DNA of 21,605 nt from a virus (Duplodnaviria > Heunggongvirae > Uroviricota > Caudoviricetes), in the IMG/VR virus record IMGVR_UViG_2681813318_000014. One strand, given 5' to 3'. The position numbers were made by a program, and so were the translations under genes. Below the pieces are notes generated by a model. The model ran no database searches. It saw only the letters and a program-made list of their open reading frames with translations, and was not told the origin of the DNA. Positions within the stretch are counted from its first letter, which is position 1. Each line of letters begins with the position of its first letter. Positions 1-15,444 of this stretch are shown here, in pieces.

Positions 1-186
1 TTAGTTTGTTTTACCATCATCAATCGTAATTGTGATTTCATATTTGAAAAGCTTAATGCTGAAATTGAAGCGTGTACTTTTGGCGATAATCATTTTTAAA
101 AGCTGATACACCAGAAGCACCAGAAACACAAAGCAACCTAAGCTTGCGAATCTGTGAGATTCAGCAATTGTTTCAAGAAAGCCCAT
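1..186 (-). CDS. small predicted membrane protein (61 aa), divergent from the RHH regulator gene
   Basis: ATG at 186 with AAGGGG RBS about 6 nt upstream; hydrophobic stretch LGCFVFLVLLVYQLL; stop at 1-3; own consensus-like promoter (237-265, minus strand). Confidence 0.35.
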   Translation of the reverse strand: MGFLETIAESHRFASLGCFVFLVLLVYQLLKMIIAKSTRFNFSIKLFKYEITITIDDGKTN

Positions 187-322: not shown

Positions 323-613
323 ATGACTCACACAGTTACGCGCCTTTTGCCAGAGGCATTTGAACGACTGGCAGCAATCAAAGCCAAATATCCCGATATG
401 AAGCACACAGCGCTTGTTGGGGAGATTTTAAAAGAGTCGGTAAACCTTAGCCCTTTCGATAACGTTAAGGGCGTTGCAGAGGGTTCTAAGGCCATCAGAA
501 TCACAACAGGCCAACTGGAACTACTCAAAGCACAGTCCGCAGTAGCAGGCTGCTCAATGATTCAGGTCTTGAGCGATAAGGTTTGCAAGCTTGCTGATAA
601 ATTGGAGGTTTAA
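323..613 (+). CDS. putative DNA-binding regulator with two ribbon-helix-helix-like repeats (CopG/Arc/Mnt type), 96 aa
   Basis: ATG 323 with AAGGAG 8 nt upstream; two segments with beta-strand-then-two-helices pattern (TRLLPEAFERLAAIKAKY... and IRITTGQLELLKAQSAVAGCSMIQVL); stop TAA overlaps next ATG (TAATG). Confidence 0.55.
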   Translation: MTHTVTRLLPEAFERLAAIKAKYPDMKHTALVGEILKESVNLSPFDNVKGVAEGSKAIRITTGQLELLKAQSAVAGCSMIQVLSDKVCKLADKLEV

Positions 614-999
614 TGTATGACTTTTATAAACATCGTGACCATTTGGTAAGATTTGACGGTAGAGTCTGGAAAGACATAACAGAAACCAATAAACCCAAGT
701 TTACCCACCAGCAATTAGCCTCAAGATTTGATATCTGGACTGAAGCACAAAAAGATAATGGTGATTTCGAGTTTATCAGGGGTTTTGATTATGCTTACGA
801 AGACGACCTTAAAGACGCCATTAAATTAATTGAAAATTTTAATGGAAATAATTCTGGTGACAAACACAAAGCCAATGGTAATCGGTATGACAGGGAGTTA
901 ATTCTTGATGCCATTTCCAGAGGTCAATCACAAAGTTATATTTCTGAGAAATACGGTTTATCACGCAGTCAATACTACAAGATTAAAGCGTCTGTGTAA
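613..999 (+). CDS. hypothetical protein with C-terminal helix-turn-helix (128 aa)
   Basis: ATG 613 overlapping upstream stop, GGAGG RBS at 604-608; C-terminal DRELILDAISRGQSQSYISEKYGLSRSQYYKIK resembles recombinase/terminase-small-subunit type HTH. Confidence 0.5.
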   Translation: MYDFYKHRDHLVRFDGRVWKDITETNKPKFTHQQLASRFDIWTEAQKDNGDFEFIRGFDYAYEDDLKDAIKLIENFNGNNSGDKHKANGNRYDRELILDAISRGQSQSYISEKYGLSRSQYYKIKASV

Positions 1000-1136: not shown

Positions 1137-1460
1137 ATGAATAATCACCCAATGCAAATTTTCGTTGATAACGACACCGCTATGATGATTCAGGCTTTCA
1201 CTGATGTAGGTGTTAGCATTGACTTTGATAAGTTGTTAGAGTTAATGGCTGATAATGCGGAAAGCATCTCTGACTTTATTCACTCGGTGGAGTTTAACGA
1301 GCCTCGAATGATGCTACCAATTAAAGACAGCAACATGAAAAGATTGGTTATCGAGCAAACGAACAAATACAGCGTTAGCCCTGAAAAATATCTCAAGGCA
1401 GCTATAGCAATTTTGTACAGCGATAATATTCTGGTGACGGATTCGAAGGTGGTGCATTAA
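1137..1460 (+). CDS. hypothetical protein (107 aa)
   Basis: ATG 1137 with GAGGAA RBS 7 nt upstream; no recognisable motif. Confidence 0.5.
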   Translation: MNNHPMQIFVDNDTAMMIQAFTDVGVSIDFDKLLELMADNAESISDFIHSVEFNEPRMMLPIKDSNMKRLVIEQTNKYSVSPEKYLKAAIAILYSDNILVTDSKVVH

Positions 1461-1537
1461 TGGGTTTAATAATTGCTTGGACGCTGTTAGGGTTATTTGT
1501 TGGTTGCTGGATGGGTAACACAGTAAATAAGAATTGA
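1460..1537 (+). CDS. possible 25-aa hydrophobic peptide (MGLIIAWTLLGLFVGCWMGNTVNKN)
   Basis: ATG overlaps the upstream TAA (TAATG); AAGGTGG-like RBS 7 nt upstream; single transmembrane-like segment; below the ORF-track size cutoff. Confidence 0.3.
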   Translation: MGLIIAWTLLGLFVGCWMGNTVNKN

Positions 1538-1561: not shown

Positions 1562-1590
1562 TTGACAAATAACCTTAAACATGACATAAT
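1562..1590 (+). promoter_or_regulatory. near-consensus sigma70 promoter (TTGACA-17-CATAAT with TG extension)
   Basis: TTGACA 1562-1567, 17-bp spacer, TGaCATAAT 1582-1590; followed by AGAGAG/CTCTCT hairpin at 1610-1626 and about 430 nt without an ORF before the 2023 gene. Confidence 0.45.
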
Positions 1591-1760
1591 TTTAATTATA
1601 GAGAGAATTGCTCTCTTATTTCTTTCAACAATTCCATCTACATCTAGGGATAGTTATTCTGAAAGGTGCAATGCTTTTCGCTACATGGCCTATTTAGCCC
1701 ACTAGATAGGCTATATATCAAAAAGTGCTTAATCATTCATTATTGAACCCTTACAGCTTT

Positions 1761-2022: not shown

Positions 2023-2727
2023 ATGTCTATCCGTGATGAACATGAAATGATTATCGAAAACAAACCAAGTGCACTTGATATTCACGAATTAAGTTTGCGT
2101 GAATCTTTTGATAGAGCTTGGCGGGAATCACACGAAGTAAATAAAGGTCCATATATTCCACCAGAACCACTCGAGATTCCAAGAGTTGAAATTGATTTTT
2201 CTATGAACGAACGGTGTGAACTTGATTTGAAGTTGAAGCTACAACGCCGATATTTCCAAGCTATTAAAGACTCTCAAGAAGCAATGAGAAGTGTTTACGA
2301 GAAAATTCAGTCCAAGCTTGAAGACGAAATTGACGAAATGGCTATTTTGATGGAGCTTCAAACCAATTCTTATGCTTATTTCTCTCGACTAGACCGTGAC
2401 GGTTGGGGGTATGACCCTGTAGAGATTGGTAAAGTGATTGCAGATTTACCAGAAGGTCAAAGAGTTGTTCGTACAGAAAGAGCCATTAGAGCGCCACATC
2501 GACTGTCTCTAATTGTTGCTGATAAATCACAAGCTGAGCTTGAAGAAATTGCCAAAGAGAAACTGATGAAAGCAAGAGAAAATGAGATTAATTTGCTGAA
2601 ATCAAGACTGGCTAAGCTGATTAGTGACCATCAAGCGCTGGCTAAGGAGTACCGTCAAGAGTTGGCACAGATTATCAGCTTCAATGATTTTCTGAGTGTT
2701 CCACGAGAATTTAGCAAGGCTGTTTAA
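2023..2727 (+). CDS. hypothetical protein, charged/helical (234 aa)
   Basis: ATG 2023 with GAGGA RBS; composition rich in E/K/R/L suggests coiled coil; no recognised motif. Confidence 0.55.
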   Translation: MSIRDEHEMIIENKPSALDIHELSLRESFDRAWRESHEVNKGPYIPPEPLEIPRVEIDFSMNERCELDLKLKLQRRYFQAIKDSQEAMRSVYEKIQSKLEDEIDEMAILMELQTNSYAYFSRLDRDGWGYDPVEIGKVIADLPEGQRVVRTERAIRAPHRLSLIVADKSQAELEEIAKEKLMKARENEINLLKSRLAKLISDHQALAKEYRQELAQIISFNDFLSVPREFSKAV

Positions 2728-2749: not shown

Positions 2750-2965
2750 ATGATTGATTTAACAGAACGCTATGAAACTATTCGGTCTGTTTGTGAAAAC
2801 TTAAAGTTACAAACTAAACCAGCCTTAAGAATTAAAAGCAAACATCAAATTATCACCTCACGCAAACCAAAAACACGCAAGATTCCAAAGTGGTGTATCG
2901 ACCGTATCCCTTCCGATGCTCAAATTATAGGTGAAACGGAACTACATTATCTTGTCAGGCATTAA
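2750..2965 (+). CDS. small basic hypothetical protein (71 aa)
   Basis: ATG 2750 with GAGGTG RBS; K/R-rich. Confidence 0.45.
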   Translation: MIDLTERYETIRSVCENLKLQTKPALRIKSKHQIITSRKPKTRKIPKWCIDRIPSDAQIIGETELHYLVRH

Positions 2966-3062
2966 AAAAGAATGGTTGGGTGTATGAGATAGGTTCTATC
3001 GAATCTATAACACGGGGAGAGATTATCGAGTGATATCGGTAGTTTCTCCCTTTTTTGTATGT

Positions 3063-3129
3063 GTGCTACGTGAAATCTTCTGAACAGATATACCCACCAA
3101 AAATTATTTTTTACGTAGCTCACGCTTAA
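3063..3129. repeat. about 65-bp conserved element, copy A, immediately upstream of the tape-measure-like gene
   Basis: CTACGTGAA...ATACCCAC-CAAAAATTATTTTTTACGTAGCTCACGCTTAA; a 32-bp core is identical to copy B at 5326-5392; contains the internal inverted repeat GCTACGT...ACGTAGC about 41 bp apart. Confidence 0.6.
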
Positions 3130-3147: not shown

Positions 3148-5316
3148 ATGGCACAATTTAAAGTTGATGATTTTCTGATTGAGTTAAGTTTTAACTCTCA
3201 GAAAGTTTTAAAAGGCTTGGAAAAAGCCGAGAAACAAACGATGCAGGTAGCATCACGAATTGAGAAGCGATTGAATAAAGCTTTTAAAGTTAACCCTACG
3301 CCTTTAAATGATTCTCTCAAGGTCATGGAAAGAAATGTCGATAAAACTGTTTCCAAGATTGAGCAGCGTCTTAAAAACACTAGAGTGTTTAAGATTAAAA
3401 CGGAAATTGAGGATACTTTAAAGCCACTTAGACAACCAAGACAGCCACGAATTAGCGGCAACAGAGCAATCACAGCAGCTTACTCAGCGAATATGAGCAA
3501 GCTAAAAGGCTTTGACCCTATTTTGCAGAAATACATCAAATCTCAGTTTTACGGGCTATCTGCTAAAGCCGGGTCAATGGATAATTCAAAATTCAATGAG
3601 AAGCTGGCTCAGCTAAATGCTTCAGTCAGAGAAGCAATTGCTAAAGCTAAAGGTCATACATCCACCAGCATTAATAATACAAGCGACGCATTTAATAATC
3701 TTGCAAGCAATGCAATTAAGTTATCTGGTGCATTTTACTCTGTGATGGGTGCTCTTAACGCTTACAAGGCCATTATGAATGCAGGTCTTAAACGAGATTC
3801 CGCACAGAGAGCCGCTAAGTTTGTACTTGGTGATAAAGCATCTGAGGCTGAAACATTTATCAGGGGACTGGCTGACAAGACAGGTCTTAATATCTCTGAA
3901 GGGCTATCAAGCTACGCTAAGTTTGCAGCAGGTGCTCAGGGTTCTATGTCACAGGAACAGACACAGGAGCTATTTGGTAATGCAACGGCTATGAGTCGCT
4001 TAATGGGGCTTAGTAATGATGAGCTAAACGGCATTTTGAAAGCTTTTGAGCAGATGGCTTCTAAGGGCAAGATTCAGGCTGAAGAATTACGTGGGCAGTT
4101 AGGTGACCGTATGGCTGGTGCATTTAAGCTATTCGCTGAAGCACTGGGTATGACTGCTACAGAGCTTGATAAAGCGATGAAAGACGGGAAGATTTTAAGT
4201 AGTGATACTCTCCCTAAAGTCGCTAAACAGATGGGCTTGATGATTGATAAAGCGGGTGGCTGGGCTGAAGTCGCTAAGAGCACCCAGACAGCTTTAGGTA
4301 AGTTAGCAAACAACTGGGATGATACGATGGTGAAAATCTTCTCAGGTTCACAGGATGAGCTAAACGGCTTCTTATCCAGCCTGAGTAACCTGCTTAGTGA
4401 AATGGGGATGAGTTCTTCTATCGCTGGTGATGCTATCGGTGGGCTTATCGACATGCTTAAAGCTGGTGTAGATGATATTCGCGTATTCAATAACACCATT
4501 GAAGGCTGGATTTTACAGGTTAAAAAGTTCTATTACAGCCTTGATGACACTAAACGAAAACTACTTGATGAAGTCGGTGATGGTTTTATCAATTTTGTCA
4601 AAGGTCTTGCTATAGCGTTATCTGCAAAGACGCTATTCAGTGCCACTACAGGGGTTATGAACCTGACAAGAGCAATCACAACGTTAGGTACAAGAGCTAA
4701 TCAGGTGGCTGGTCAGGTAGCTACTGGTAAAGGTGGTGAAAAACTGAAAGGTGTAGCTGGTGGTGTAGGTAGTGCTCTTGCAATTGGTTATGCTGATGAC
4801 GGTTATGAAACAGCGTTAGCATTAGCTTCAATGATTCCACAAATCAGAGGTGTCACCCTTGGTTTATATGCATTGAAGAAAGCACTGGATTTTATGAATC
4901 AGGAAGTAGTCAAAAACGCTAACATGCATCCATCTGGGGTAGGTGTGGGTAGTGACTTTAATCCTGTGTATTCTGGTGACCCTAATAAACCGAATATGAT
5001 TAATGAAGGGTGGATTAAAATTTTTAGTTCAATGGGTGAATTGTTTAACAATGCCACAATGAATATTGCAAGATTCAATCATCCAGAATTAAACAACATT
5101 AAGCAAGAAGCATCACTAACCAGCGCAGATATTCAAAGTCTGAGGGATGAAATCTCTGCTTTAAGTAAGCGTATTCAGGAGCCTGTGAAAGTTTCACTTG
5201 GTGGTGAAGTTGCCATTAAACCAGATGAAACATCGTTTATGACCTTTAGCGGTAATATTTACGACCAATACGCAGAAGCTACGCTATTAAGTTCATCATT
5301 TCCAGAAGATGATTGA
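3148..5316 (+). CDS. tape-measure-domain protein (phage tail length tape measure-like), 722 aa
   Basis: Segment LKAFEQMASKGKIQAEELRGQLGDRMAGAFKLFAEALGMTATELDKAMKDGKILSSDTLP matches the conserved tape-measure motif as recalled from memory; central Gly/Ala-rich hydrophobic segments; GAGGTG RBS upstream. Confidence 0.7.
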   Translation: MAQFKVDDFLIELSFNSQKVLKGLEKAEKQTMQVASRIEKRLNKAFKVNPTPLNDSLKVMERNVDKTVSKIEQRLKNTRVFKIKTEIEDTLKPLRQPRQPRISGNRAITAAYSANMSKLKGFDPILQKYIKSQFYGLSAKAGSMDNSKFNEKLAQLNASVREAIAKAKGHTSTSINNTSDAFNNLASNAIKLSGAFYSVMGALNAYKAIMNAGLKRDSAQRAAKFVLGDKASEAETFIRGLADKTGLNISEGLSSYAKFAAGAQGSMSQEQTQELFGNATAMSRLMGLSNDELNGILKAFEQMASKGKIQAEELRGQLGDRMAGAFKLFAEALGMTATELDKAMKDGKILSSDTLPKVAKQMGLMIDKAGGWAEVAKSTQTALGKLANNWDDTMVKIFSGSQDELNGFLSSLSNLLSEMGMSSSIAGDAIGGLIDMLKAGVDDIRVFNNTIEGWILQVKKFYYSLDDTKRKLLDEVGDGFINFVKGLAIALSAKTLFSATTGVMNLTRAITTLGTRANQVAGQVATGKGGEKLKGVAGGVGSALAIGYADDGYETALALASMIPQIRGVTLGLYALKKALDFMNQEVVKNANMHPSGVGVGSDFNPVYSGDPNKPNMINEGWIKIFSSMGELFNNATMNIARFNHPELNNIKQEASLTSADIQSLRDEISALSKRIQEPVKVSLGGEVAIKPDETSFMTFSGNIYDQYAEATLLSSSFPEDD

Positions 5317-5325
5317 TTTAACGGT

Positions 5326-5392
5326 GTTCTACGTGAATAAAGCAAAGTTAATACCCACACCAAAAATTATTTTTTACGTAGCTCACGCTTAA
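5326..5392. repeat. about 65-bp conserved element, copy B, immediately upstream of the 5473 gene
   Basis: CTACGTGAA...ATACCCACACCAAAAATTATTTTTTACGTAGCTCACGCTTAA; same core and same internal inverted repeat as copy A. Confidence 0.6.
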
Positions 5393-5472
5393 CAGAGAAA
5401 ACACTTATATATCAAAGGCTTGGTTAAAAATGATTAAAATACACTAAGCCTTTGAAATCAAAGGAGAATTTA

Positions 5473-6261
5473 ATGATTTTTAGCAATCAAATCCGCTACA
5501 GTGGCAAAGATGGCATCTATTTCCACTTAAGAGATAATGTAGATGCCTTCTTAACTTTATCAGCTACTGAAAACATGGAATTTGACAGCCCTATGCAGGT
5601 CACTACACAAAACATGCAATCAGGGCAAACCGTCACAGATAATGTGCAAAGAGCACCCAGAACAATCACTATTAGTGGTGTCGTTGTAGTTGGCTATGAA
5701 GGGAGCTTATTATTAACTCGTCAGGGCCAGTTAGTAGAAAACTTCATCGACACTCTTGAAAGCTGGAGAGACCAGAAACAAATTATTTCAGTGATTTGTA
5801 AAGATGGTATCAAGATTGATGACTCAATTATTACCAACTTTAAAGCCTCTAAAGATGTTACTATCTCTAACGGTCTTCGTATCCAGCTAACTTTTCAGGA
5901 AATTAACTTCAAAGCCGTTGTGGGTCAAACTGATATTTCAGCAGCAACTGGAAAGACCGCTACTACAAATGATGGTGGTGTGACCAGTAAGAAGAATGCA
6001 GGTAACGTGACCACTGAACGCAATAACGCGCCTATGCTATCGTGCAAAGAGTTAATGAGTATTAACGATGTATCCGGTTACGCTCCAGCTATCAGAAATG
6101 ATATTCTCGATGCTCAGATTAAATGTAATAAGGCTTGGAAGCTGGATTATTCAGACTTAACAGAAGCTGAAAAAACCAACGTCACCAATGCTAACAGTAA
6201 CGCTGGTCGAGTAGCTTCAAAGCTTAAAAAGTACTCAGTGAACCCTCACAAAAAATACTAA
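5473..6261 (+). CDS. hypothetical beta-rich protein (262 aa), possibly a distal tail component
   Basis: ATG 5473 with AAGGAG 6 nt upstream (the track start at 5452 is a TTG with no RBS); position directly after a tape-measure gene; functional call is by position only. Confidence 0.5.
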
Positions 6262-6303: not shown

Positions 6304-7782
6304 TCAGAAAGCGACTGTATAGCCTCTGTAACGTTGTCTGAGGGGTTTTCTGTTATTGGTAGGGTGGATTGACTTACTATTGTGAAAAGTTACTTTACAG
6401 CGACGTTTAGCAGTATTTAAAACGACCTCTTTAACAGCACTTTTGATTATCAGTTGTGCTTCAATCCTTCCCGCCTTTGTAGTCAAGTCACAATCAGACA
6501 AACACCCCACATCAATAGATTTAAGGCGTTGTGTCTCCTTCTCGATATCCGCATCAACCTGTGATAGCTCACCTTTTAACTGTTTTAGTTTGCTGGTAAT
6601 AGCGGACAAGTCTTCAATTTCAAGTGATAGCTGTACCAGCTTTTCAATATTGCTTGAGATGTGTTCACGGTGTAGCCTCAACATATCTATGGTATTCGTC
6701 ATATCGCTATCAAATCGGTCAAGACGAGATAGCAGGGTAAGTAATGTACCATCGGTTTGCTTACGTGACAGCCCTTTAGCACTACAACGGTTTTCATTAC
6801 GAAGAGGACAACGATAAATCCCGCTTCTTGTATCGCTAAAGCCTGTGATAATCAAAGCATGACCACATTCAGAACAACGGATAACACCTTTAAAGAGATT
6901 CACACTCAATGGTTTATCTGAAACAGGTTTTCTTCCATAACGAGAATATGATAGTTGCTGGACTTTGTAGAAATCAGTCTCAGGGATGATAGAGGGGAAA
7001 TAACCAGTTATCTCCTCACAGCCTTTAGGTGTGAAGTAACCAATTACAGAGCGATTCTTCAGAAGGTCTTGCACTGAGGTTTGACCAAACTTACCCGCTT
7101 TATATTGGTTAAGTGTCTGGTGACCTTCATCATTAAGAGTCCTGACAATCTCCCAGATAGACTTACCCTCTAACCGTAGCTGAAAGCACCTCTTCACAGT
7201 CTCCACTTTCTCAGGTATCACAGAGAAGCTTTTACGGTCATCATTCAGCCTTAACCATGCAGGACAACGCTTAGAAATCTTGATACCTTCAGAGATGAGT
7301 TCTTTTTTACGGTTCCATGCAGCTTGTATACGCTCAGACTTCCTCAAACTCTCCTCATGCGACCGCTGCATTATCAGAATGCTTTTAATCAGAGCTAACG
7401 GGTCTTTAAGAGATTCCCTTGTGTAATGTTCACCATCGGACAAGGTGACTACATCTACACCAGAGCGAAGAATGTTTCGTAATAGCTCACTTGCTCGGTC
7501 TACGTTCTGGCGTGACAAACGGTCAAGAGATTCTATCAAGAGCGTATCACCAGCTTTAACAAGCCCTTTCTCGATAGCGGTTAAAAAGTCACCTAAGCCA
7601 CCTTTCAAGTGCTTACCAGTAAACCCGCTAACGCCTAAATCACGGAAGGATAAATCTTGGTCAAGGTAGTACTCAGGATGAGCCTTAAGCCAGTCATTAA
7701 CCATCTTAGACTGTCTGCGTAGTGAATCACCTCGGGATTGCTTCTCAGATGAAAACCTGATGTAAGAAATGGCACGTTTCAT
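6304..7782 (-). CDS. large serine recombinase (integrase/resolvase family), 492 aa
   Basis: N-terminal resolvase-type catalytic region with Ser in AISYIRFSSEKQ; long recombinase domain; Cys-rich zinc-ribbon-like segment CSECGH...CP; C-terminal coiled coil; GGTGAGGTG RBS; at the edge of the AT-rich block next to chromosomal DNA. Confidence 0.85.
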   Translation of the reverse strand: MKRAISYIRFSSEKQSRGDSLRRQSKMVNDWLKAHPEYYLDQDLSFRDLGVSGFTGKHLKGGLGDFLTAIEKGLVKAGDTLLIESLDRLSRQNVDRASELLRNILRSGVDVVTLSDGEHYTRESLKDPLALIKSILIMQRSHEESLRKSERIQAAWNRKKELISEGIKISKRCPAWLRLNDDRKSFSVIPEKVETVKRCFQLRLEGKSIWEIVRTLNDEGHQTLNQYKAGKFGQTSVQDLLKNRSVIGYFTPKGCEEITGYFPSIIPETDFYKVQQLSYSRYGRKPVSDKPLSVNLFKGVIRCSECGHALIITGFSDTRSGIYRCPLRNENRCSAKGLSRKQTDGTLLTLLSRLDRFDSDMTNTIDMLRLHREHISSNIEKLVQLSLEIEDLSAITSKLKQLKGELSQVDADIEKETQRLKSIDVGCLSDCDLTTKAGRIEAQLIIKSAVKEVVLNTAKRRCKVTFHNSKSIHPTNNRKPLRQRYRGYTVAF

Positions 7783-7832
7783 TGTTCACCTCACCTAATA
7801 ACCCCTAGATTGTATCGCTTTAGGTGGTGTAT

Positions 7833-8234
7833 TTAAACGTGTCTAATAAAAATCACCCGATTAACGCCGCGCTGATGTAAACCGCGATTAAGCGTTTGTT
7901 CCTCTTCCCCTTTGGCGAAAAACTGTGGATGGCGGACTTCCACACCATAATTAAATTCGCCAGGGAGAGAATCGAGAAAATGCCAAAGCGCAGGCAGCTC
8001 CCGTGGGCCGAATGTGGCAGGCAGTTGCAGCCAGTATTGCCCAATGCGCGGAGCCAACGGTGACATGCGGGTCAAAAATTCAGTCACTAAATCATCGCAA
8101 TGTCGTAATGCTGCCTGATGCGAAATGGTCGCCGGAAACTTAAAACAGAAGCGGAAGTCATCTGTGGTCTGTTCACGCCAGCGCAGGACAACCTCGGGTT
8201 TCGGCAGGGCGTAAAGCGTGGTGTTGCCCTCCAC
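7833..8234 (-). pseudogene. yecE: fragment of a chromosomal DUF72-family gene (consistent with yecE), missing both ends
   Basis: GC-richer composition than both flanks; sequence CVEGNTTLYALPKPEVVLRWREQTTDDFRFCFKFPATISH fits the conserved DUF72 N-proximal pattern as recalled; no native start (frame open into the integrase 3' end); only about 133 codons versus roughly 270 expected. Confidence 0.5.
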
Positions 8235-8260
8235 GCAGTTAACATGACGGGTATTAAGGA

Positions 8261-9574
8261 TTAACTTACTGATTTTAATAAGCCTCTGGTGTCACTTTGG
8301 TGACTATGGGGCATCATTGGGACATAATCTGTCAGCTTCTGATTCAGCATTGCGATCTGTTCTGCATTGCTGTCAGTCATCCATGCTCCGTATACATTGA
8401 ATACCATCTGGGCACTTGCATGGCCCATCTGGCTGGCAATGAAGCTTGGGTTTGCTCCGGCAGATAATGACCAGCACGCATAAGTGTGTCGTGACTGGTA
8501 TGCCTTTCGATGCCTGATCCCTGCACGCTTAATGGCTGTTTCCCATGAGTCACCTACAGAATCGACTTTGTAGACAAAACCTACCTGTTCGCTTTTTCTA
8601 ACCACTTGAGGGTTAAACACGAAAGTACATTCATGGTTCACTGAACGTCCATATTCACGTAGTTGCACCTTGATGTTGTACTGCTTACCCAGTCTTGTCA
8701 TTTCAGCCTGATTTTTCAGGACACTGATAGCGGGCTGGATAAGGTGCACAACCCTGTTTGTGCTTGCTTCAGTTTTCGGTAGAGTGAACTCACCAAGTTT
8801 CGTATAATTGCGCCTGATGGTAATTGTTCCTGCCTTCAGATCGATATCTTCCCAGGCCAGGGAGACCAGTTCACCGTGACGCATTCCTGTGTACACAGCC
8901 AATGACCACAGGTTTTTCGTCTGCTGATGTCGGCAAGCATCTATCAGGCGAATAAATTCGTCACGAGTTAGCGGATCTGGCTCTGCCCTGGCTCTTTTAA
9001 GAGGCTTAATTCCCTGGAAGGGATTTGCTTCTAAGTAACCGTGATCTGCAGCAAACTGAAACATTCCAGCGATTGTCGTCATGTAATAATTTACAGTAAC
9101 GACGCTCCGTCCTTTTGCTGCTGCTTTGTTTTTCGTTGAATTCTGATACCCGGTAAGCAAATCTTTCCTGATATACAGCAATTCCTCTTTGGTTACCGAT
9201 GACACCAGTCTACTGCCTCCAATTTTCGGAACCATCGTTCTTGCAACGGATTCATAGCGATTGAATGCATTTGCAGAGATTTCCATTCGTTTCAGATCCA
9301 GCCACTTTTCTTCAAGTTCCTTCACCGTAATTTCTTTTTTACTTACCCCAAAAGCCTGAAGGTTGGGGGAGTCAGGGAACTGTGCAGCATAATCAAAGCT
9401 TCCTGTGCGGATGGCAAAACATACTGATGTCCGCAGTTCCCCGGCGATCTTCCTGTTCTTGGCAGTGTCAGGGACACCAAGATTTTCCCTGACACGTTTA
9501 CCGTTAAAATTAAACCAGATGCGTAATGTGCCGCCGTGGTTTTCGACGCCTGTTGGATATTTGACTTTATCCAT
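8261..9574 (-). CDS. int: phage tyrosine integrase (437 aa)
   Basis: C-terminal catalytic-region residues consistent with a tyrosine recombinase (AYQSRHTYA..., ...VYGAWM); N-terminal arm-type domain; GGAGGT RBS; immediately downstream of an excisionase-like gene on the same strand. Confidence 0.85.
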   Translation of the reverse strand: MDKVKYPTGVENHGGTLRIWFNFNGKRVRENLGVPDTAKNRKIAGELRTSVCFAIRTGSFDYAAQFPDSPNLQAFGVSKKEITVKELEEKWLDLKRMEISANAFNRYESVARTMVPKIGGSRLVSSVTKEELLYIRKDLLTGYQNSTKNKAAAKGRSVVTVNYYMTTIAGMFQFAADHGYLEANPFQGIKPLKRARAEPDPLTRDEFIRLIDACRHQQTKNLWSLAVYTGMRHGELVSLAWEDIDLKAGTITIRRNYTKLGEFTLPKTEASTNRVVHLIQPAISVLKNQAEMTRLGKQYNIKVQLREYGRSVNHECTFVFNPQVVRKSEQVGFVYKVDSVGDSWETAIKRAGIRHRKAYQSRHTYACWSLSAGANPSFIASQMGHASAQMVFNVYGAWMTDSNAEQIAMLNQKLTDYVPMMPHSHQSDTRGLLKSVS

Positions 9575-9629
9575 CGATACCTCCAGACGCCCAAGAGCGA
9601 TACGAGCTTACATATTTCATGATATTAAA

Positions 9630-9866
9630 TCACCTGGGTTGTTTGTTTTTCATTGAGGCGACCCAGGCATCTATTGCTTTTCTGTTATACATACATTCAC
9701 TGGAAGGCTTTGGATTACCGTCTGGTGATACGTGAATATACTCTCTTCCAACCATCCAGCATTCTTTCCGGGCCCGAAGAATTGTGCCTGGTTTGAGCCC
9801 GGTAATTGCGATAAGAACGCTTTCACAAACCCATTCATTGGGAGCCAGTTGAATCACATTGCCCAT
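9630..9866 (-). CDS. xis: excisionase-like protein (78 aa)
   Basis: Small basic protein directly upstream of int on the same strand; TGAGG RBS; resembles the lambdoid-prophage excisionase-like family from memory. Confidence 0.55.
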   Translation of the reverse strand: MGNVIQLAPNEWVCESVLIAITGLKPGTILRARKECWMVGREYIHVSPDGNPKPSSECMYNRKAIDAWVASMKNKQPR

Positions 9867-9874
9867 GTATTACC

Positions 9875-10021
9875 TCACACAACACTCAGCCCACGGCAGT
9901 GGCACCACACTTCAAACATTCGCTTCACAACTTCACGACAGTAGAAGCCGTCAACATCTCGCGTCAGGTCATAGCGATTGCCGTAACGCTGGTGGACCCA
10001 TCGTTCAAATGCTTTATTCAT
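9875..10021 (-). CDS. possible small protein (48 aa), below ORF-track cutoff
   Basis: ATG at 10021 with AGGAAG RBS 7 nt upstream; begins 4 nt after the upstream gene's stop; its stop lies 8 nt before the xis ATG. Confidence 0.3.
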   Translation of the reverse strand: MNKAFERWVHQRYGNRYDLTRDVDGFYCREVVKRMFEVWCHCRGLSVV

Positions 10022-10024
10022 TCT

Positions 10025-10267
10025 TTACTTCCTTTTTATGGCTCGTAATTTTTTCAGGTGCTTTTCCTGCTCAGTGTCCGCGAGAATTTTGCGGTACTCC
10101 TGGTGGTCAATATGTTCGAACAGGCAGTTTAACTCACCAATGCGTACCCGCCCGGATCGTCCGTCCATCCGTCGAAAGAACACTGAGTGCTCAGTGATGC
10201 GAGTAATCACCACGGGGTATCCGGCTCTGTCCGTGTATATCTGACCGCGTTGAATCAAAGCGAACAT
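10025..10267 (-). CDS. hypothetical phage protein (80 aa)
   Basis: ATG 10267; sits in the tightly packed early-left operon. Confidence 0.5.
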   Translation of the reverse strand: MFALIQRGQIYTDRAGYPVVITRITEHSVFFRRMDGRSGRVRIGELNCLFEHIDHQEYRKILADTEQEKHLKKLRAIKRK

Positions 10268-10271
10268 GTGG

Positions 10272-10355
10272 TTATCCCCAGCGGCAAATCGAATACACCA
10301 TCAGCGTCACCGCCATCGCAATTCCTACCGTTGTTAATGCTTCAGGCCAGGTCAT
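10272..10355 (-). CDS. possible 27-aa hydrophobic peptide ([27 protein letters not shown])
   Basis: ATG overlaps upstream stop (ATGA at 10352-10355); GGAGG RBS 10 nt upstream; single transmembrane-like segment. Confidence 0.3.
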
Positions 10356-10696
10356 CGTAAAATATCCTCCACGCTTATCAGTCCGTTCCGCTCCAGATAA
10401 CTCATCGCCTTATCCGGTAATTTGCAGTCTGGCTTCGCTTTCCTCAGTTGCCAGGTTAACTGCTTTACCAGCATGGTTAACTCATCGACCAGACGCTGAT
10501 ATCCCACTGGTTTGTATTCATGCAATTTACCGGCTGGCTCTGCTGCCAGCGATACCAGTGCGATTTCCAGAACAGCAATATCCATCTTATATGTGCGGAT
10601 GATGTCATGGTCGATTGTACCCGGTATGCACAGTCTCTGTGCTTCAATAGTCTCCTCTGCGTGAGCTATTAACTGCTCTCTGGTAAAAGTCGTCAT
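10352..10696 (-). CDS. hypothetical phage protein (114 aa), paralog of the next gene
   Basis: ATG 10696 in ATGA overlap with upstream stop; AAGGGG RBS; shares the [10 protein letters not shown] motif and a 29-bp DNA repeat with 10693..10878. Confidence 0.55.
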
Positions 10697-10878
10697 GCCG
10701 TAGCCCCTTCTTGATATTTTTCAAACCAGAACACAACCGGCTCTGCTTCCAGCGATACCAGTGCAATTCGTGCCAGTTCTTCCGCTTCTTCTGCTGGCAG
10801 TACAACGTTGCTACCCGGTCCGTATGTTTCGCGCCACTGCTTGATTGTCAGCAGTCGCCCTTTGGTAATAGTGATCAT
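10693..10878 (-). CDS. hypothetical phage protein (61 aa), paralog of 10352..10696
   Basis: ATG 10878 in ATGA overlap; AAGGAA RBS; motif [10 protein letters not shown]. Confidence 0.5.
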
Positions 10879-11390
10879 GCCGCGTTTCCTTCTTTCTTAT
10901 TAACAATCACACCGTCATATATTTCATTAAGGTGCCCTCTCAACTCCATGCGCCTTAATGCAGATAACATGTAATCGCATTCAACCTGCTTATTCCCAGT
11001 AAATGGCTTATCGTCAGGATTACCCCAACAGCAATTACCCCTGGGCCATCCATGTACTTTCCGTACTCTTCCGTTAACAACGTGAAGTAATCCCCAGCCG
11101 GGAGGTAAATCCTCAACTGAAATAATTTCCGGCTCACTAATAAAGAATCGCCAGTCGCCCATGCCAAGTGAGGGATTTTTACGGAAACGCTTTTTTCTAT
11201 CTGCCAACAAGTCAGCACGAGAACACTTCGCCTCTATCAGGCATGATGCTGAATTTCTGAATCCCATAGCATCTGGCTGTTCTCCGGTACTGGTTACAGC
11301 AACAAAGCGGTCATGAAAGCAAACCTTGAACCCGTTGCGCTTAAGGAACTTGTACGCAATCTGACAGAGTTCGTGGTGTGTTAACGCCAT
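10875..11390 (-). CDS. putative PD-(D/E)XK nuclease, MmcB-like (171 aa)
   Basis: Start moved to ATG 11390 (AAGGAG 6 nt upstream; track start 11423 is TTG); motif DAMGF...CLIEAKCSRADLLAD...DWRFFISEP fits the D...E-x-K nuclease core of the MmcB-like family as recalled. Confidence 0.55.
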   Translation of the reverse strand: MALTHHELCQIAYKFLKRNGFKVCFHDRFVAVTSTGEQPDAMGFRNSASCLIEAKCSRADLLADRKKRFRKNPSLGMGDWRFFISEPEIISVEDLPPGWGLLHVVNGRVRKVHGWPRGNCCWGNPDDKPFTGNKQVECDYMLSALRRMELRGHLNEIYDGVIVNKKEGNAA

Positions 11391-11391
11391 A

Positions 11392-11877
11392 TCACTCTCC
11401 TTTGATGCGAATGCCTGTTGCAATGCTGTTTATGATGCTGTCAGTGCATGGGGTAGAAAGCTGGGCATCTCCAGCAATTTTCATGACCTCAACATCTGCA
11501 TATCGAATACCGAGGTGTATCAGACCGGCTATGCCTGACTTAAGCCGAGCATTTTCCATAAATAGAACTTTTGCCCGCTGTTTTTCTGCTTCAAGCTCAA
11601 CGCGCAGCTTCCCTACCGTTAGCGCAATATCCTCGTTCTCCTGATCGCGGCTTTTGATGTATTGCAGGTTTCTTTCCCGTTCATCCAGCAGTGCCAGCAC
11701 GGTTTCTGGTCCGGTCAGAAATTTGAAGGCGTTGAGCGCATCAATATCCACACCGTAATCTTTAAGTTCCTGTTCACTTAACAAGTCATCATCAGCTGGC
11801 AACATTAACAGGCGTTCCATTGCTGGAATTGCACGTTCCGCCACCTCACGCAGTGCCTGGTAATTAATTTCGCTCAC
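11392..11877 (-). CDS. Ea22-like early protein (161 aa)
   Basis: GTG start at 11877 with AAGGAGG RBS 6 nt upstream; N-terminus MSEINYQALREVAE is characteristic of the Ea22-like family in lambdoid phages; GTGA overlap with upstream stop. Confidence 0.55.
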   Translation of the reverse strand: MSEINYQALREVAERAIPAMERLLMLPADDDLLSEQELKDYGVDIDALNAFKFLTGPETVLALLDERERNLQYIKSRDQENEDIALTVGKLRVELEAEKQRAKVLFMENARLKSGIAGLIHLGIRYADVEVMKIAGDAQLSTPCTDSIINSIATGIRIKGE

Positions 11878-12380
11878 TGGTTGCCTCCTTTGCGAAGCTG
11901 GGCAGCAAAGTCAACTAACCACTCAGTCATTTCAACCTTCCCTACCAGGTCTGAACCAGGGTACATACAGCAATCACTCTGCGCCGCTTTGAAATCCTTA
12001 TACTCATATTCTTGGGCCACCAGATTTTTTGCAGCTTCTATAGCAGCGTCCACCCCCTGCGCCCGGACTTCAGCCAGGAAAGCATCAGTGGTTGGCGTTT
12101 CAGGTATCTGTCTCCTCATCCGTTCTATTGCATGATTGAACCCGAAGTCTTCCGCGAGAGATACGTCATCCATATTGTCATTGTCATCCTCAATATCCCG
12201 TGATTCTGGAATTGCAGACTTTATTCCCGCATTCTCCGCTGCCAGCGCCGCGCACTTGGCCTCAAGAGCGGCAACCACTTCCTGATGGTCTTTGTACTTA
12301 ACGTATGAGCCGGAGATGTCATCACCTTCGGTGTTTAGCCATGCGTCATTGCAATTCACTGCGTAGGTTCTGATGCTCAT
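11874..12380 (-). CDS. acidic hypothetical phage protein with coiled-coil segment (168 aa from the internal ATG)
   Basis: ATG 12380 with GGGAGAG RBS, in ATGA overlap with the stop of 12377..12559; the track's longer 208-aa version begins at an upstream ATG without an RBS. Confidence 0.5.
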   Translation of the reverse strand: MSIRTYAVNCNDAWLNTEGDDISGSYVKYKDHQEVVAALEAKCAALAAENAGIKSAIPESRDIEDDNDNMDDVSLAEDFGFNHAIERMRRQIPETPTTDAFLAEVRAQGVDAAIEAAKNLVAQEYEYKDFKAAQSDCCMYPGSDLVGKVEMTEWLVDFAAQLRKGGNQ

Positions 12381-12559
12381 GTTGATGCTCTCCCGCCCCT
12401 GACAGACGCCAGGCCAGTCAATAAAGTATCCGCAATGCCTACCCTCAGACGTGCGCGCAGGATAAATGCCGTTATGACCCGGCAAATATATGCTACCCAT
12501 TCATCTTGCGTTGCCTGTTCCGCCGCCTCGCGCAGTGCCTGATAGTCAATCTTGCTCAC
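12377..12559 (-). CDS. short Ea22-like N-terminal-module protein (60 aa), possibly a recombination remnant
   Basis: GTG 12559 with AAGGAGG RBS; the first about 22 residues (MSKIDYQALREAAEQATQDEWVA) match the Ea22-like N-terminus, the rest is low-complexity; its 5' region is a DNA paralog of the 11877 gene start. Confidence 0.35.
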   Translation of the reverse strand: MSKIDYQALREAAEQATQDEWVAYICRVITAFILRARLRVGIADTLLTGLASVRGGRAST

Positions 12560-12860
12560 TGGCAGCCTCCTTTGCCGGGATTTCTAACTTTTGAGTGGTT
12601 GTATCAAATTCAAACAACTTAACCACGTCATCAAACAGGACATAATCACCATCAGGATCTTCAGTCATATCTGCGCCACAATCCTGACCGCACGAGTCGC
12701 AACCATCCATATCAAGCTCGTATCGCTTCAGGTTTGCGATATTTGATAAATTCAGCGCCAGTACAGCCAGGTCATAAACCTCTTCGGCAGTGACATCGCT
12801 GTTCAGTCCCATTTCATGGCGATATATGATTTTTTCTACTCGTTGTTTTGTGATCGTCAT
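12546..12860 (-). CDS. hypothetical phage protein (104 aa)
   Basis: Start moved to ATG 12860 (GGAGTG RBS 9 nt upstream); acidic C-terminus. Confidence 0.5.
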   Translation of the reverse strand: MTITKQRVEKIIYRHEMGLNSDVTAEEVYDLAVLALNLSNIANLKRYELDMDGCDSCGQDCGADMTEDPDGDYVLFDDVVKLFEFDTTTQKLEIPAKEAASEQD

Positions 12861-13131
12861 TTTTCTCTTCACTCCGATATACAAGGATTACTACACCCCC
12901 TCTGCTGATTGCGCGAGCTGGATCCCCTGGTTCCATGCCGTCAATTCCGAAGGCTTCGGAAAACGCATTCATTGCCTTCTGGCGTTCATCCTGCTTACGG
13001 CGTTTATTCCATTTTTTCAGGAACAACAGCGACAGCCACCGTCCGCTGCAGAACACGATGTAAAAATAACCAAGGAGCGCCAGGCCGACATTCAGGGCCG
13101 TTTCTATGGTTAGTTGTGAGTCAGTTGCCAT
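12814..13131 (-). CDS. small predicted membrane protein (105 aa)
   Basis: ATG 13131; N-terminal transmembrane-like segment LNVGLALLGYFYIVFCSG followed by a basic stretch KKWNKRRKQDERQK. Confidence 0.4.
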   Translation of the reverse strand: MATDSQLTIETALNVGLALLGYFYIVFCSGRWLSLLFLKKWNKRRKQDERQKAMNAFSEAFGIDGMEPGDPARAISRGGVVILVYRSEEKNDDHKTTSRKNHISP

Positions 13132-13369
13132 TTCTTACCTGTTTAAGTAACTGGTTGAACATAACACTTAGGGGATTGCTGTATCCAAACGGCAGATTGT
13201 TTACGCAGTACAGAATCATTTTGTTTTTTTCTCCAGTTCGTACTATTAACCCATTCCACAATAACCGTGATAATTCATTACTGATAGAAGTTGCGCTTCT
13301 TCCAAGTGCGAGGGATATATCTTCTCTACTGCAATCTGGATTTTCCTGGATATACTCGATAACGGTCAT
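13121..13369 (-). CDS. small winged-helix/HTH-like protein (82 aa)
   Basis: Start moved to ATG 13369 (AAGGGA RBS right after the upstream stop); segment CSREDISLALGRSATSISNELSRLLWNGLIV looks like an HTH. Confidence 0.45.
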   Translation of the reverse strand: MTVIEYIQENPDCSREDISLALGRSATSISNELSRLLWNGLIVRTGEKNKMILYCVNNLPFGYSNPLSVMFNQLLKQVRNGN

Positions 13370-13379
13370 GTGGTCCCTT

Positions 13380-13961
13380 TTACTTAATATCTGTTTCGGA
13401 TTGCATGCCATGAGTATTCATTTCGTTAATAATTTCATCCAGAAGGATTTCAAGCCCTTCTCGACCCATATCTGAAAGAATGAAACCTTTATCAGGGGAA
13501 GTAGTGAGCATTTTCTGATAAAGAAACAGCGCTCTTCCCATTCCTTCAGCTTCGCCGTATTTTTGAATTAAATTCCATTCAATATACTGTTGTAAGGCAA
13601 ATCGAATGGGGCCGGGATATATCGTCATAAACCCATACATCCCGTTATATACCACGGCGTGTTCAGTTGTTCCGTGTTCATTCAGGATATCAATTGTGCC
13701 GTTCTTGTCTTCTTCTTCGTTGATGAATGTCGTCACATACAACCATCGCCACTGAGCAACCTTCATCTCAACCGGAAGTTTACCCAGTAATCCTGCTTCG
13801 TCGGCTTGCGCCAGACACTGAAGGATACGTAAACCTCGCACATTAGGAGTATCGAATTCTCCGGCATCCAGACGACGTATGGCGTCGTGATAATCAATCG
13901 TCATACTGCCAGTTCGTATACCATTGGCTGTTGCTTCAGCCTGGAATTCATCGTATTGCAT
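13380..13961 (-). CDS. hypothetical protein (193 aa)
   Basis: ATG 13961 with GAGGAA RBS 8 nt upstream; no recognised motif. Confidence 0.55.
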   Translation of the reverse strand: MQYDEFQAEATANGIRTGSMTIDYHDAIRRLDAGEFDTPNVRGLRILQCLAQADEAGLLGKLPVEMKVAQWRWLYVTTFINEEEDKNGTIDILNEHGTTEHAVVYNGMYGFMTIYPGPIRFALQQYIEWNLIQKYGEAEGMGRALFLYQKMLTTSPDKGFILSDMGREGLEILLDEIINEMNTHGMQSETDIK

Positions 13962-13966
13962 GATAT

Positions 13967-14155
13967 TTATTCCTCATCTTCATCTTCATCTGCTGGTGCA
14001 ATAACGTCATATCCTGCCCTTTCTGCAATAAACAGGAATGTTGAAAGAGTTCCTACAAGTTCATCGTCATGAACATGGCGAATGAATATTACTTTCCCGT
14101 TTTTGATGGTCAGCAATATTCTGGTTTGTTCGTGTTCTGCTGTTTTCTGATGCAT
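13967..14155 (-). CDS. small acidic hypothetical protein (62 aa)
   Basis: ATG 14155 with GGGAGA RBS; C-terminal DEDEDEE tail. Confidence 0.45.
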   Translation of the reverse strand: MHQKTAEHEQTRILLTIKNGKVIFIRHVHDDELVGTLSTFLFIAERAGYDVIAPADEDEDEE

Positions 14156-14157
14156 TA

Positions 14158-14271
14158 TTATCTCCCGTATGCTTTACGCAGAAATAAGCAGGCAATATGC
14201 ATGTAATTTTCACCGTATTGTGCAATAAGGCAGGCGGTCTTGTGTGATGCCATATTCTTTATAAAAGTCAC
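14158..14271 (-). CDS. possible 37-aa ORF in the 195-bp intergenic region
   Basis: GTG start with AGGAGG RBS 7 nt upstream; stop overlaps the RBS of the next gene; weak. Confidence 0.2.
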   Translation of the reverse strand: MTFIKNMASHKTACLIAQYGENYMHIACLFLRKAYGR

Positions 14272-14304
14272 AATAAAGCCTCCTGTGGATTAAGGTTGTA
14301 ACAA

Positions 14305-14346
14305 TCCCCGGCGATAAAACCGCAATAAACGTTCAGGGCATATTTG
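14305..14346 (-). terminator. terminator-like hairpin after the 121-aa gene
   Basis: Minus-strand reading: GCAATAAC...GTTTATTGC stem starting 4 nt after the stop, followed by GGTTTTAT. Confidence 0.35.
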
Positions 14347-14349
14347 TTG

Positions 14350-14715
14350 TTATTGCGCTAATTCTTTTTCGGCAGCAGCTTTTGTATACTCACATGCAAA
14401 ACTCAGAATTTCGCTGCCGAGTGTTTTCGTTTCGTGATTACTGGACATATGTAATACCTGTGTTGCATGCAATAAATGATAAACATTTACCGCAAATGAA
14501 TCAGGCTCCAGACAAATGCCTTCGTAATTATCTTGCTGTGAGGTTGTTTCTGTCATTGCTCCTGAAGTGCATGCGAGCCTGTTTTTGACAATTCTCTTTT
14601 CTCTAATCACTATATCGGCAACATCTATTGCCTTTACAACCTCCGGGAGAAGTTCCGGGTTTGTATAATCAAAGTCATCAACATGGAGAACAGTTATGTT
14701 TTCGAACTTTTTCAT
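14350..14715 (-). CDS. hypothetical protein (121 aa), second gene of the cI-adjacent module
   Basis: ATG 14715 with GAGGAAG RBS 4 nt upstream; no recognised motif. Confidence 0.55.
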   Translation of the reverse strand: MKKFENITVLHVDDFDYTNPELLPEVVKAIDVADIVIREKRIVKNRLACTSGAMTETTSQQDNYEGICLEPDSFAVNVYHLLHATQVLHMSSNHETKTLGSEILSFACEYTKAAAEKELAQ

Positions 14716-14846
14716 GGCTTCCTCAGCTGACTTATATGTTCTGCTATATAGCGAGTCTCAGAAGTGTTTTCATATTGAGACTGTTTCCGCAATGATTGAT
14801 AAAAATGTTCGCATGTACCTTGAAGGGCGAAGCGGCGATTATGTCA

Positions 14847-15392
14847 CTATTGGTATTGGTTCTTCCGCAGAAGAGCTTCGCGAGATAAGGGGCAAACTTG
14901 TTGAGATGCGTCATGGTGTTGCTGCTCCTCACTTTTTGGTTGCTCCGGAGGAGTAACCTCACCAGTTAACAGCCACATCGGATCGCAGCCAAGAATATTT
15001 GCCAGTGGGATAAGCATACTGATAGTTGGTTCATACTCTCCGCTCTCCCACTGGATGATAATTTCTTCATCGAGATCGAGCAGCCTGGCGAGTTCGGCGG
15101 TTGTTAAGCCGCAGGCTTCGCGTTGGGTGCGAAGGTTAACCAGCCAGCTTTCAGGGAAGGATTGTTTTTGTTGTGCAGGAGAAGCAGCAGATAGAGCATA
15201 TTCATGGATAAATTCCATTACCTCAATGCCCAGTTCCTTTGAGCGAGCACAATCCAGAAGATGGAATGTGCGTACAGCACTTAGCAAATTTGCAATATTT
15301 AATGCAAAGGAATCAAGTTCTAAGCCCTTAAGCGTAACACAGCCGCAGTTGATAAAATTAGTTGTTTCTGGAGTTGCTTTTAGTGTCTTCAT
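14847..15392 (-). CDS. two-domain protein with C-terminal XRE-type helix-turn-helix (181 aa from ATG 15392)
   Basis: HTH segment LTTAELARLLDLDEEIIIQWESGEYEPTISMLIPLANILGCDPMWLL; the track start at 15422 is a TTG, the first ATG is at 15392; the N-terminal 90 residues are unassigned. Confidence 0.55.
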   Translation of the reverse strand: MKTLKATPETTNFINCGCVTLKGLELDSFALNIANLLSAVRTFHLLDCARSKELGIEVMEFIHEYALSAASPAQQKQSFPESWLVNLRTQREACGLTTAELARLLDLDEEIIIQWESGEYEPTISMLIPLANILGCDPMWLLTGEVTPPEQPKSEEQQHHDASQQVCPLSREALLRKNQYQ

Positions 15393-15444
15393 ATATCCGC
15401 CAACAATTTTAAATTGAATCAAATCAAGTTATAATTGATGGTGC

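Follow-up and report, generated by a model that had tools for sequence, protein, structure and literature searches.

A stretch of viral DNA of 21,605 nucleotides (nt) (IMG/VR record IMGVR_UViG_2681813318_000014, Caudoviricetes; hereafter the window) carries most of a mobile island that is inserted in the Escherichia coli gene yecE and encodes a tape measure protein (TMP) and a tail-tube initiator (TI), both homologous to proteins of Felix O1-type virulent myoviruses (Felixounaviruses). On balance, and with modest confidence, we favour the reading that these two proteins are the tail-core module of a satellite of Felixounaviruses, which would use them to build chimeric tails. We lean this way because of the protein identities, the shared gene order, the mosaic pattern of conservation, the selection acting on both genes, the exchange of TI sequence with phages, the occurrence of free circles and the lack of other virion genes. 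The features central to the argument are these (aa, amino acids; PDB, Protein Data Bank):

3148..5316, plus strand: island TMP, 722 aa, with Pfam, PHROG, TIGR and PDB matches
5473..6261, plus strand: island TI (Dit-like), 262 aa from an ATG, with Pfam, PHROG and PDB matches
5452..6261, plus strand: TI from an alternative start, a TTG at 5452, giving 269 aa
6304..7782, minus strand: large serine recombinase, 492 aa, with the Pfam domains Resolvase, Recombinase and Zn_ribbon_recom
up to 7848: right end of the island, its junction mapped against K-12 yecE and six other copies
7783..7855: attR in yecE, made of the island right end and the 7-nt core AAAATCA (7849-7855), from mapped junctions
7849-8254: yecE fragment between the island and a lambdoid prophage
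8255 to 21605: lambdoid prophage, the second element

The original prediction, made from the letters of the DNA alone, described the 722-aa protein as carrying a tape-measure signature and a hydrophobic, Gly/Ala-rich core, and the profile and structure matches bear this out. The protein matches Pfam TMP_3 (PF20155; E = 1.8e-22, 80.4 bits against a cut-off of 41), TIGR02675 (55.6 bits, cut-off 21.35) and phrog_4036, 'tail length tape measure protein' (4.7e-90), as well as the solved TMP of phage Bas63, gp017 (9ndy_F, 1e-69), with which its N-terminus, centre and C-terminal tail all match collinearly. Residues 186-600 are rich in Gly and Ala (24-28%), and hydrophobicity peaks near aa 488-495. 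Conservation with the phage protein is concentrated in aa 1-50, aa 281-360 and the C-terminal LLSSSFPEDD tail (LLSSS[FY]PE), the remainder being less than 25% identical. In the Bas63 baseplate structure, the final 25 TMP residues touch the puncture protein and the hub (PMC12609058). Across 10 alleles compared, island TMPs are 682-725 aa long and 27-33% identical to Felixounavirus TMPs (742-749 aa), than which they are 17-67 aa shorter; dN/dS between island copies is 0.12-0.41. In Citrobacter sp. ANG330 (L007, 5868-9908; L numbers denote individual loci and contigs), the TMP gene is split by an insert of ~1.8 kb that itself carries two open reading frames (ORFs), of 259 and 340 aa. The insert is probably an insertion sequence (IS) element, which would mean that some island copies have been inactivated.

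The gene that follows had been taken for one beta-rich partner of 262 aa. The partner gene is there, and it is no unknown: it encodes a Dit-like tube initiator, a component of the baseplate hub. Profile searches of both proteins, proposed at the time, gave Pfam and PDB matches to TMP and tube initiator; those of the TI are to Pfam Dit_like (PF21821; 6.4e-20, 72 bits, cut-off 24.2), phrog_3721 (1.5e-129) and, from end to end, gp018, the tube initiator in the solved Bas63 structure (9ndy_A, 1.6e-113). A structure model of the 262-aa protein was poor (pLDDT 38.9) and unfit for fold searches, which were unnecessary because the PDB sequence match sufficed. In Bas63, gp18 assembles as a hexamer and bridges the mismatch between the trimeric hub and the six-fold tube; it combines a tube-like fold with a C-terminal extension of ~100 aa that passes through the baseplate beside the spacer protein (PMC12609058). 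As a whole, the island TI is 73-75% identical to phage TI, and this identity is unevenly spread. Residues 13-185 (269-aa numbering) are ~98% identical in protein and 90% in DNA to those of phage REP10; the C-terminal extension, ~70 aa after aa 185, is ~30% identical to that of REP10 and similar in length to the phage extension; and the last ~10 aa (SVNPxKK) are again conserved with phage. The closest 120 island TI proteins have two main types of C-terminus, at most 47% identical to the phage type and neither of them phage-like. Values of dN/dS between island TI copies are 0.04-0.2. Segment histories differ along the TMP and TI genes between island copies, which points to recombination between islands.

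Only Felix O1-type virulent myoviruses (Ounavirinae, 86-90 kb) were found to have close TI relatives among phages, and in them the TI homologue stands directly after the TMP gene, the same order as in the island. The genome of REP10, read in whole, has no annotated integrase. TMP and TI are the only ORFs of the window with homologues in a complete 86-kb Felixounavirus genome. Phage and island TI alleles are interleaved: in a neighbour-joining tree of tube-domain DNA, computed without bootstrap, four Felixounavirus alleles fall among the island alleles. In this domain, the allele of L017 is 96.1% identical to that of phage SP3 and the allele of L006 94% to that of LF82P2, the phages being 93-95% identical to one another, and other islands are 71-82% identical to E. 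coli Felixounaviruses. This interleaving indicates that island and phage DNA met and recombined repeatedly. One island variant also encodes an HNH-AP2 endonuclease that is 41% identical to an HNH endonuclease of REP10. Genes for HNH or HNH-AP2 endonucleases are located at 11399-11923 in L002, 9342-9614 in L006, 7157-7444 in L014 and 4107-4394 in L020, and such enzymes might drive gene exchange between islands and phages.

A second link to these phages comes from non-coding DNA. Seventeen short patches (19-92 nt, 74-100% identical) are shared between island DNA and a 2.2-kb phage stretch with a 1.8-kb gene-free region, versus ~0.6 patches in each control chunk of the phage genome. The Felixounavirus record PP886228 has an exact direct terminal repeat of 581 bp that maps to the gene-free region, and the patches fall within this repeat, over its right-hand edge and immediately beyond either end. 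The 'repeat_region' features of Felixounavirus records were also considered as terminal repeats and were rejected as short automatic repeats. Left arms with patches, all in island parts beyond the window, are those of L001, L002, L006 and L007, and the window itself holds one:

2982..3005, plus strand: sole patch in the window, 24 nt, 24/24 identical to REP10 85,214-85,237 (minus strand)

These terminal-repeat look-alikes are candidate packaging signals.

The presumed helper could also be a phage that has yet to be sampled, possibly temperate and equipped with an island-like TMP, in which case the TI similarity would reflect gene flow among Ounavirinae-like tails. Such a helper would account for the low identity of the island TMP to every sequenced Felixounavirus TMP (27-33%) and for the many island TI alleles with only 71-82% DNA identity to E. 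coli Felixounaviruses. We consider it improbable, since no TMP more than 60% identical to the island protein occurs among 50,697 phage records, and since the best full-length matches, synteny, TMP termini and terminal-repeat patches all indicate Ounavirinae. A distant TMP is no obstacle to a Felixounavirus helper either: in the PLEs, satellite islands of Vibrio cholerae, the TMP is likewise only 20% identical to that of the proven helper (PMC12987554).

The island is a discrete unit that is inserted by its large serine recombinase and has also been found free, as a circular or permuted molecule bearing a precise attP. Since the window begins inside the island, the missing left part was taken from relatives. 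In related E. coli chromosomes, yecE is interrupted by an insert of 11.2-11.7 kb with a constant gene plan, and complete relatives measure 11.2-11.8 kb, are located in yecE, at wrbA or at a Citrobacter site, and always end in TMP, TI and recombinase. The left arm is variable: it encodes a Dam methylase, in some cases joined by a small resolvase or by an HNH or HNH-AP2 endonuclease, and has long non-coding stretches; it is followed by relatives of three small genes (o96, o128 and o107), then o234, o71, TMP and TI, and the recombinase on the opposite strand. Islands adjacent to wrbA share this gene plan with a recombinase that is only 35% identical, and so does a third type beside the yciA/yciB region in Citrobacter. 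The insertion point in yecE is nt 472-478.

Free forms were found in metagenomes. From seven integrated copies, we predicted the yecE-type attP as right end, AAAATCA and left end, flanked by 10-bp inverted repeats. An exact search for this attP returned a single metagenome contig (L030, 11,473 nt), a full circular permutation of the island that has no yecE sequence and whose TMP, TI and recombinase genes are intact; the attP pattern was absent from IMG/VR. A further metagenome contig, from ENA and from an independent assembly (L018, 11,871 nt, coverage 64), overlaps itself exactly over 55 nt at its ends and comprises the whole Citrobacter-type island, its right end joined to its left end via the 13-nt core that flanks the integrated copy L021. 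Three other candidates, all island-sized Logan contigs, were rejected: L016 and L017 are plain pieces of chromosome, and L020 is an island with 30 nt of yecE at either end, an assembly bubble and not a circle.

A serine recombinase had been named as the next gene after the partner protein, and the gene at 6304-7782 on the minus strand, with its three Pfam domains, is indeed one. The recombinase gene of the window carries one nucleotide more than three relatives (507 aa), inserted near 6364, and the frame shift puts 20 unrelated residues in place of their last 35 aa. The insertion may be a sequencing error, or it may be inactivating and leave this copy immobile.

The original prediction had also noted that the chaperone pair and the other usual tail genes are missing around the TMP gene, and this holds in the window and in complete relatives. 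Searches against Pfam, PHROGs and NCBIfam gave no match to tail, chaperone or capsid families for the five ORFs upstream of TMP, and in every whole island examined TMP and TI are the only structural genes, with no capsid, sheath, tube, wedge or fibre gene. A complete tail cluster just left of the window, which would have turned this into an ordinary prophage tail module, does not exist in complete relatives, where yecE runs directly into non-structural genes. An Rfam search of the island gave nothing useful. A 306-aa protein with a weak HTH_36 or DnaD_N-like match is encoded in some island variants only.

This isolation of TMP and TI from other tail genes is what a decayed prophage tail remnant, stranded beside a recombinase by chance, would look like, and decay was among the explanations first proposed; the IS element in one Citrobacter TMP and the frameshifted recombinase end of the window copy fit it as well. 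The idea has become highly improbable. Both genes evolve under purifying selection (dN/dS 0.04-0.41), ORFs are intact in nearly all copies examined, and a conserved unit of 11-12 kb recurs with the same architecture at no fewer than three att sites, served by different recombinases. Moreover, free circles exist, and the homologous phages are virulent and non-integrating, with no reason to leave remnants.

The original prediction also mentioned regulator-like genes. The mapped junctions set these apart from the TMP gene: the window holds two mobile elements within yecE, first the TMP/TI island and then a lambdoid prophage inserted ~400 nt further along the gene, and the genes right of 8255 belong to the latter. 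A single prophage uniting recombinase, regulator genes and TMP is ruled out. Besides the two genes listed here, the lambdoid prophage encodes a DUF1233 excisionase, Ea22, a Cro/YdaS-like gene and two Rha genes.

8261-9574: tyrosine integrase of the lambdoid prophage
15538-16233: S24 CI repressor of the lambdoid prophage

Tandem double occupation of yecE by an island and a lambdoid prophage recurs in STEC strain 2011C-4315 (L001).

The island family is common. A megablast search with TMP-TI DNA found matches in 466 of 5,426 complete E. coli genomes (up to ~9%), at 648 places, five or fewer per genome and all chromosomal; in 75 genomes a match covers at least 80% of the query. Weaker matches, where sampled, were mostly partial and fell in genes also annotated as tape measure and baseplate protein, which is consistent with diverged alleles. 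A protein search with TI returned 1,119 clusters at E ≤ 1e-10, and the named ones among 120 listed come from E. coli, E. albertii, E. fergusonii, Shigella, Citrobacter and Salmonella. A scan of species-representative genomes found two loci only, so the species spread rests on the TI protein search.

How such an island might exploit a phage can be read from the solved Bas63 tail. The parts of the island proteins that match phage are the C-terminal TMP tail that contacts hub and puncture protein, the N-terminus and centre of TMP, and the tube-like TI domain that rests on the hub and seeds the tube. On the satellite reading, and by analogy with the PLEs, infection by a Felixounavirus would induce excision and amplification of the island. 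Its TMP and TI would then take the place of the phage proteins on phage-made hub and puncture proteins, docking via the conserved segments, and would seed phage-made tube and sheath, so that chimeric tails arise in which phage wedges and fibres surround an island core. Tails of this kind would carry packaged island DNA to new cells, at the expense of phage production. With 26 tube discs per 742-aa TMP in the Bas63 tail (PMC12609058), island TMPs of 682-725 aa would give tails shorter by about one or two discs. The original prediction had offered a minimal satellite-like element that supplies its own tail-length determinant; the satellite part of that suggestion is now the best supported. Given a difference of only 17-67 aa between island TMPs and the longer phage TMPs, the case for a tail-length determinant is weak.

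A precedent, published in 2026, exists in the PLEs, which integrate through a large serine recombinase and are parasites of the virulent myovirus ICP1 in V. cholerae (PMC12987554). PLEs encode their own TMP and tail chaperone and, in some cases including PLE11, a baseplate hub, which are 20%, 20% and 41% identical to the phage proteins; these replace the phage proteins in satellite particles, whose chimeric tails are ~10 nm shorter (PMC12987554). PLE11 additionally encodes Rta, an 80-aa inhibitor aimed at the phage TMP (PMC12987554).

Several observations weigh against a satellite. The metagenome circles demonstrate excision, not encapsidation. The terminal-repeat look-alikes are short, all but one of them lie outside the window, and they could be shared promoters or terminators instead of packaging signals. 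Island-specific DNA occurred in no phage record or virome contig searched, and the IMG/VR matches are prophage-type predictions from isolate genomes. Profile searches recognised no replication initiator, small terminase, capsid-size factor or tail chaperone in the islands. A genome of 11.5 kb is a poor fit for an 86-89 kb capsid that is filled between terminal repeats, barring multimers or small capsids. As for the copy in the window, its recombinase has a frameshifted C-terminus and its left arm falls outside.

The chief competitor of the satellite reading is a structural-mimicry defence in which TMP and TI act as poison subunits. They would keep the surfaces for docking onto phage hub, puncture protein and tube, have altered bodies and an altered baseplate-spanning extension, and block or derail Felixounavirus tail assembly. 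Infected cells would then shed non-infective particles, and the island would spread vertically or by other means and not as a satellite. Interference with superinfecting phage was already raised in the original prediction, and it survives as the main rival. Conservation of the docking segments next to island-specific remainders would suit poison subunits, and the TI tube domain tracks current phage alleles, as an arms race predicts. The lack of recognisable packaging, replication or capsid genes in the island points the same way, and blocking of tail assembly is an established defence, employed by Tai (PMC11364771), Rta (PMC12987554) and Tab (PMC10884400). The known blockers, however, are small, unrelated proteins and not full-length structural homologues, whereas the island TMP is full-length, with conserved ends and 682-725 aa in every variant, and looks built for assembly. 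PADLOC found no defence-system match for the island proteins, save for a chance-level match to LmuB in the recombinase. Free circles, the symmetry of attP, the several att sites and the terminal-repeat look-alikes suggest that the element does leave the chromosome, and in the PLEs the same gene set goes into transducing particles (PMC12987554). We regard defence without satellite transfer as rather unlikely. A broader version, in which TMP and TI serve as mimicry defence whether transferred or not and their docking surfaces are refreshed by recombination with infecting phages, appears to us unlikely as well. Poison subunits and a satellite are compatible, because PLEs do both.

The remaining features of the island lie upstream of TMP and in the spacer between TMP and TI:

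323..613, plus strand: o96, island gene with a divergent promoter-like pair (237-287) upstream
613..999, plus strand: o128, conserved island core gene with a weak C-terminal helix-turn-helix
1137..1460, plus strand: o107, conserved core gene, 71-93% identical in other islands
1562..1616, plus strand: near-consensus sigma-70-type promoter, TTGACA-17 nt-CATAAT with TG (extended -10), and a hairpin directly after
2023..2727, plus strand: o234, island-specific helical protein, family variants 23-96% identical
2750..2965, plus strand: o71, small basic protein, in all islands directly upstream of TMP
3014..3051, plus strand: strong terminator-like hairpin between o71 and TMP, 16-bp stem and T run, kept in four aligned variants
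3066..3129, plus strand: second copy of the spacer motif, just upstream of TMP, in this island variant only
5329..5392, plus strand: spacer motif in the TMP-TI spacer, CTACGTGA, 36-44 nt, [CT]ACGTAGC.CAC (inverted repeat)

The spacer between TMP and TI is 157 nt long here and ~90-240 nt among islands; in the phage, the two genes overlap. Across four aligned E. coli islands it is conserved far above the flanking coding DNA, and the motif CTACGTGA...[CT]ACGTAGC.CAC is present in 12 of 12 island variants examined, including the Citrobacter type and the most distant ones. REP10 was searched for the motif, in case it were a phage promoter, and lacks it. Folded as RNA, the spacer forms a long-range stem (z = -3.5); because the stem arms are invariant, an RNA structure and a DNA-binding site look alike. 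The motif could be a promoter or operator, an RNA stem or a processing site.

Upstream of TMP, the promoter at 1562-1616 is identical across four aligned variants within an otherwise variable gap, and an additional terminator-like hairpin is located at 1761-1781. The order of promoter and hairpins (1562-1616, 1761-1781, 3014-3051) suggests antitermination control of a transcript comprising o234, o71, TMP and TI. The back-to-back promoter-like sites at 237-287 lie between a leftward ORF for a 61-aa membrane protein (1-186, minus strand) and the rightward o96; this layout resembles a small genetic switch, its promoters being matches to consensus only. A 25-aa hydrophobic ORF (MGLIIAWTLLGLFVGCWMGNTVNKN, 1460-1537, plus strand) overlaps the o107 stop codon (TAATG). 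The other three aligned islands have a hydrophobic mini-ORF of different sequence at the same spot, and the encoded peptide could be a membrane peptide or a small toxin.

The products of o234 and o71 were examined as possible tail chaperones. The AlphaFold2 model of o234 shows long helices and was poor (pLDDT 57.6), unfit for fold searches. Profiles of both proteins matched neither phage chaperones (hhalign probability <1%) nor any PDB entry, chaperones included, and the PLE1 chaperone 5IR0 (PDB; PMC12987554) was matched neither by these profiles nor by o128 and o185 queries. A structural analogue of a chaperone among the two is possible, and o71 is, by its position only, a candidate chaperone or Rta-like factor.

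If the satellite reading is correct, E. coli and its relatives harbour a common family of satellite-like islands that target Felix O1-type phages and have so far gone undescribed. These phages are widely used in typing, biocontrol and therapy. The islands would help to explain strain-level resistance to them, and would offer a natural setting in which to study the selection of tape measure and tube initiator as a tail is initiated. The chimeric-tail strategy, so far seen only in V. cholerae PLEs, would extend to a genetically tractable host, for which the solved baseplate of Bas63, as that of a helper, already shows the seats of both island proteins. Should mimicry defence be correct instead, it would amount to a class of defence made from hijacked virion proteins and not from sensors and effectors. 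In the literature searched, no paper was found to connect Felixounaviruses with satellites or islands, or to describe this island family (subscription-only literature was outside the scope of the search). The original prediction held that either a satellite or an interfering tape measure would be new, which overstates the case: TMPs and chimeric tails are known from PLEs (PMC12987554), and a TMP has been reported in the mycobacterial EPIP elements (PMC12822802). Predicted tmp genes have also been noted in other Vibrio elements and in some cf-PICIs (PMC12987554).

Among known satellites, the island is not a PICI, a cf-PICI or P4-like; searches against Pfam, PHROGs and NCBIfam found in it no tyrosine integrase with alpA, no primase-replicase, no terS or capsid genes and no P4 sid, psu or delta. 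Its closest known counterparts are the PLEs, whose pattern it fits in architecture and presumed mechanism, yet it is no PLE itself. Each is a small chromosomal island with a large serine recombinase and a tie, here presumed, to a virulent contractile-tailed phage, and both have their own diverged TMP and baseplate-core protein (20% and 41% identical to phage in PLEs, ~30% and 73-75% in the island). They differ in host and helper (Enterobacteriaceae and presumed Felixounavirus for the island), in size (~11.5 kb against ~18 kb for PLEs), in the second protein (a Dit-like tube initiator in the island, the hub BhuB in PLEs) and in the tail chaperone, of which the island has none that is recognisable. 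Chimeric tails have been observed for PLEs, whereas the island is known here from sequence alone.

Structurally, the island proteins compare with gp17 and gp18 of Bas63 (9NDY, PMC12609058), which are direct homologues in the same order and share the TI tube domain and the hub-contacting TMP tail. Unlike the phage, the island keeps its pair in a bacterial chromosome and has none of the ten or more further genes for baseplate, tube and sheath; the TMP body and the C-terminal extension of TI are peculiar to the island. The minimalist PICMIs, satellites of virulent vibriophages (PMC10803314), resemble the island in being small reduced islands that are linked to virulent phages and have no capsid-remodelling genes; there, satellite DNA is packaged as concatemers in full-size capsids. 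Their hosts are marine Vibrionaceae, the abstract on them describes no tail genes, and we set them beside the island by description only. If the island proteins interfere with phage, they share a target, tail assembly, with Tai (PMC11364771), Rta and Tab (PMC10884400); unlike the island proteins, Tai and Rta are not described as structural homologues of tail proteins. Finally, the satellite SaPIbov5 encodes Ccm (PMC8569155), a homologue of the helper capsid protein that assembles together with helper components and redirects morphogenesis, although it acts on the capsid and not the tail, in a Gram-positive host and with a temperate helper.

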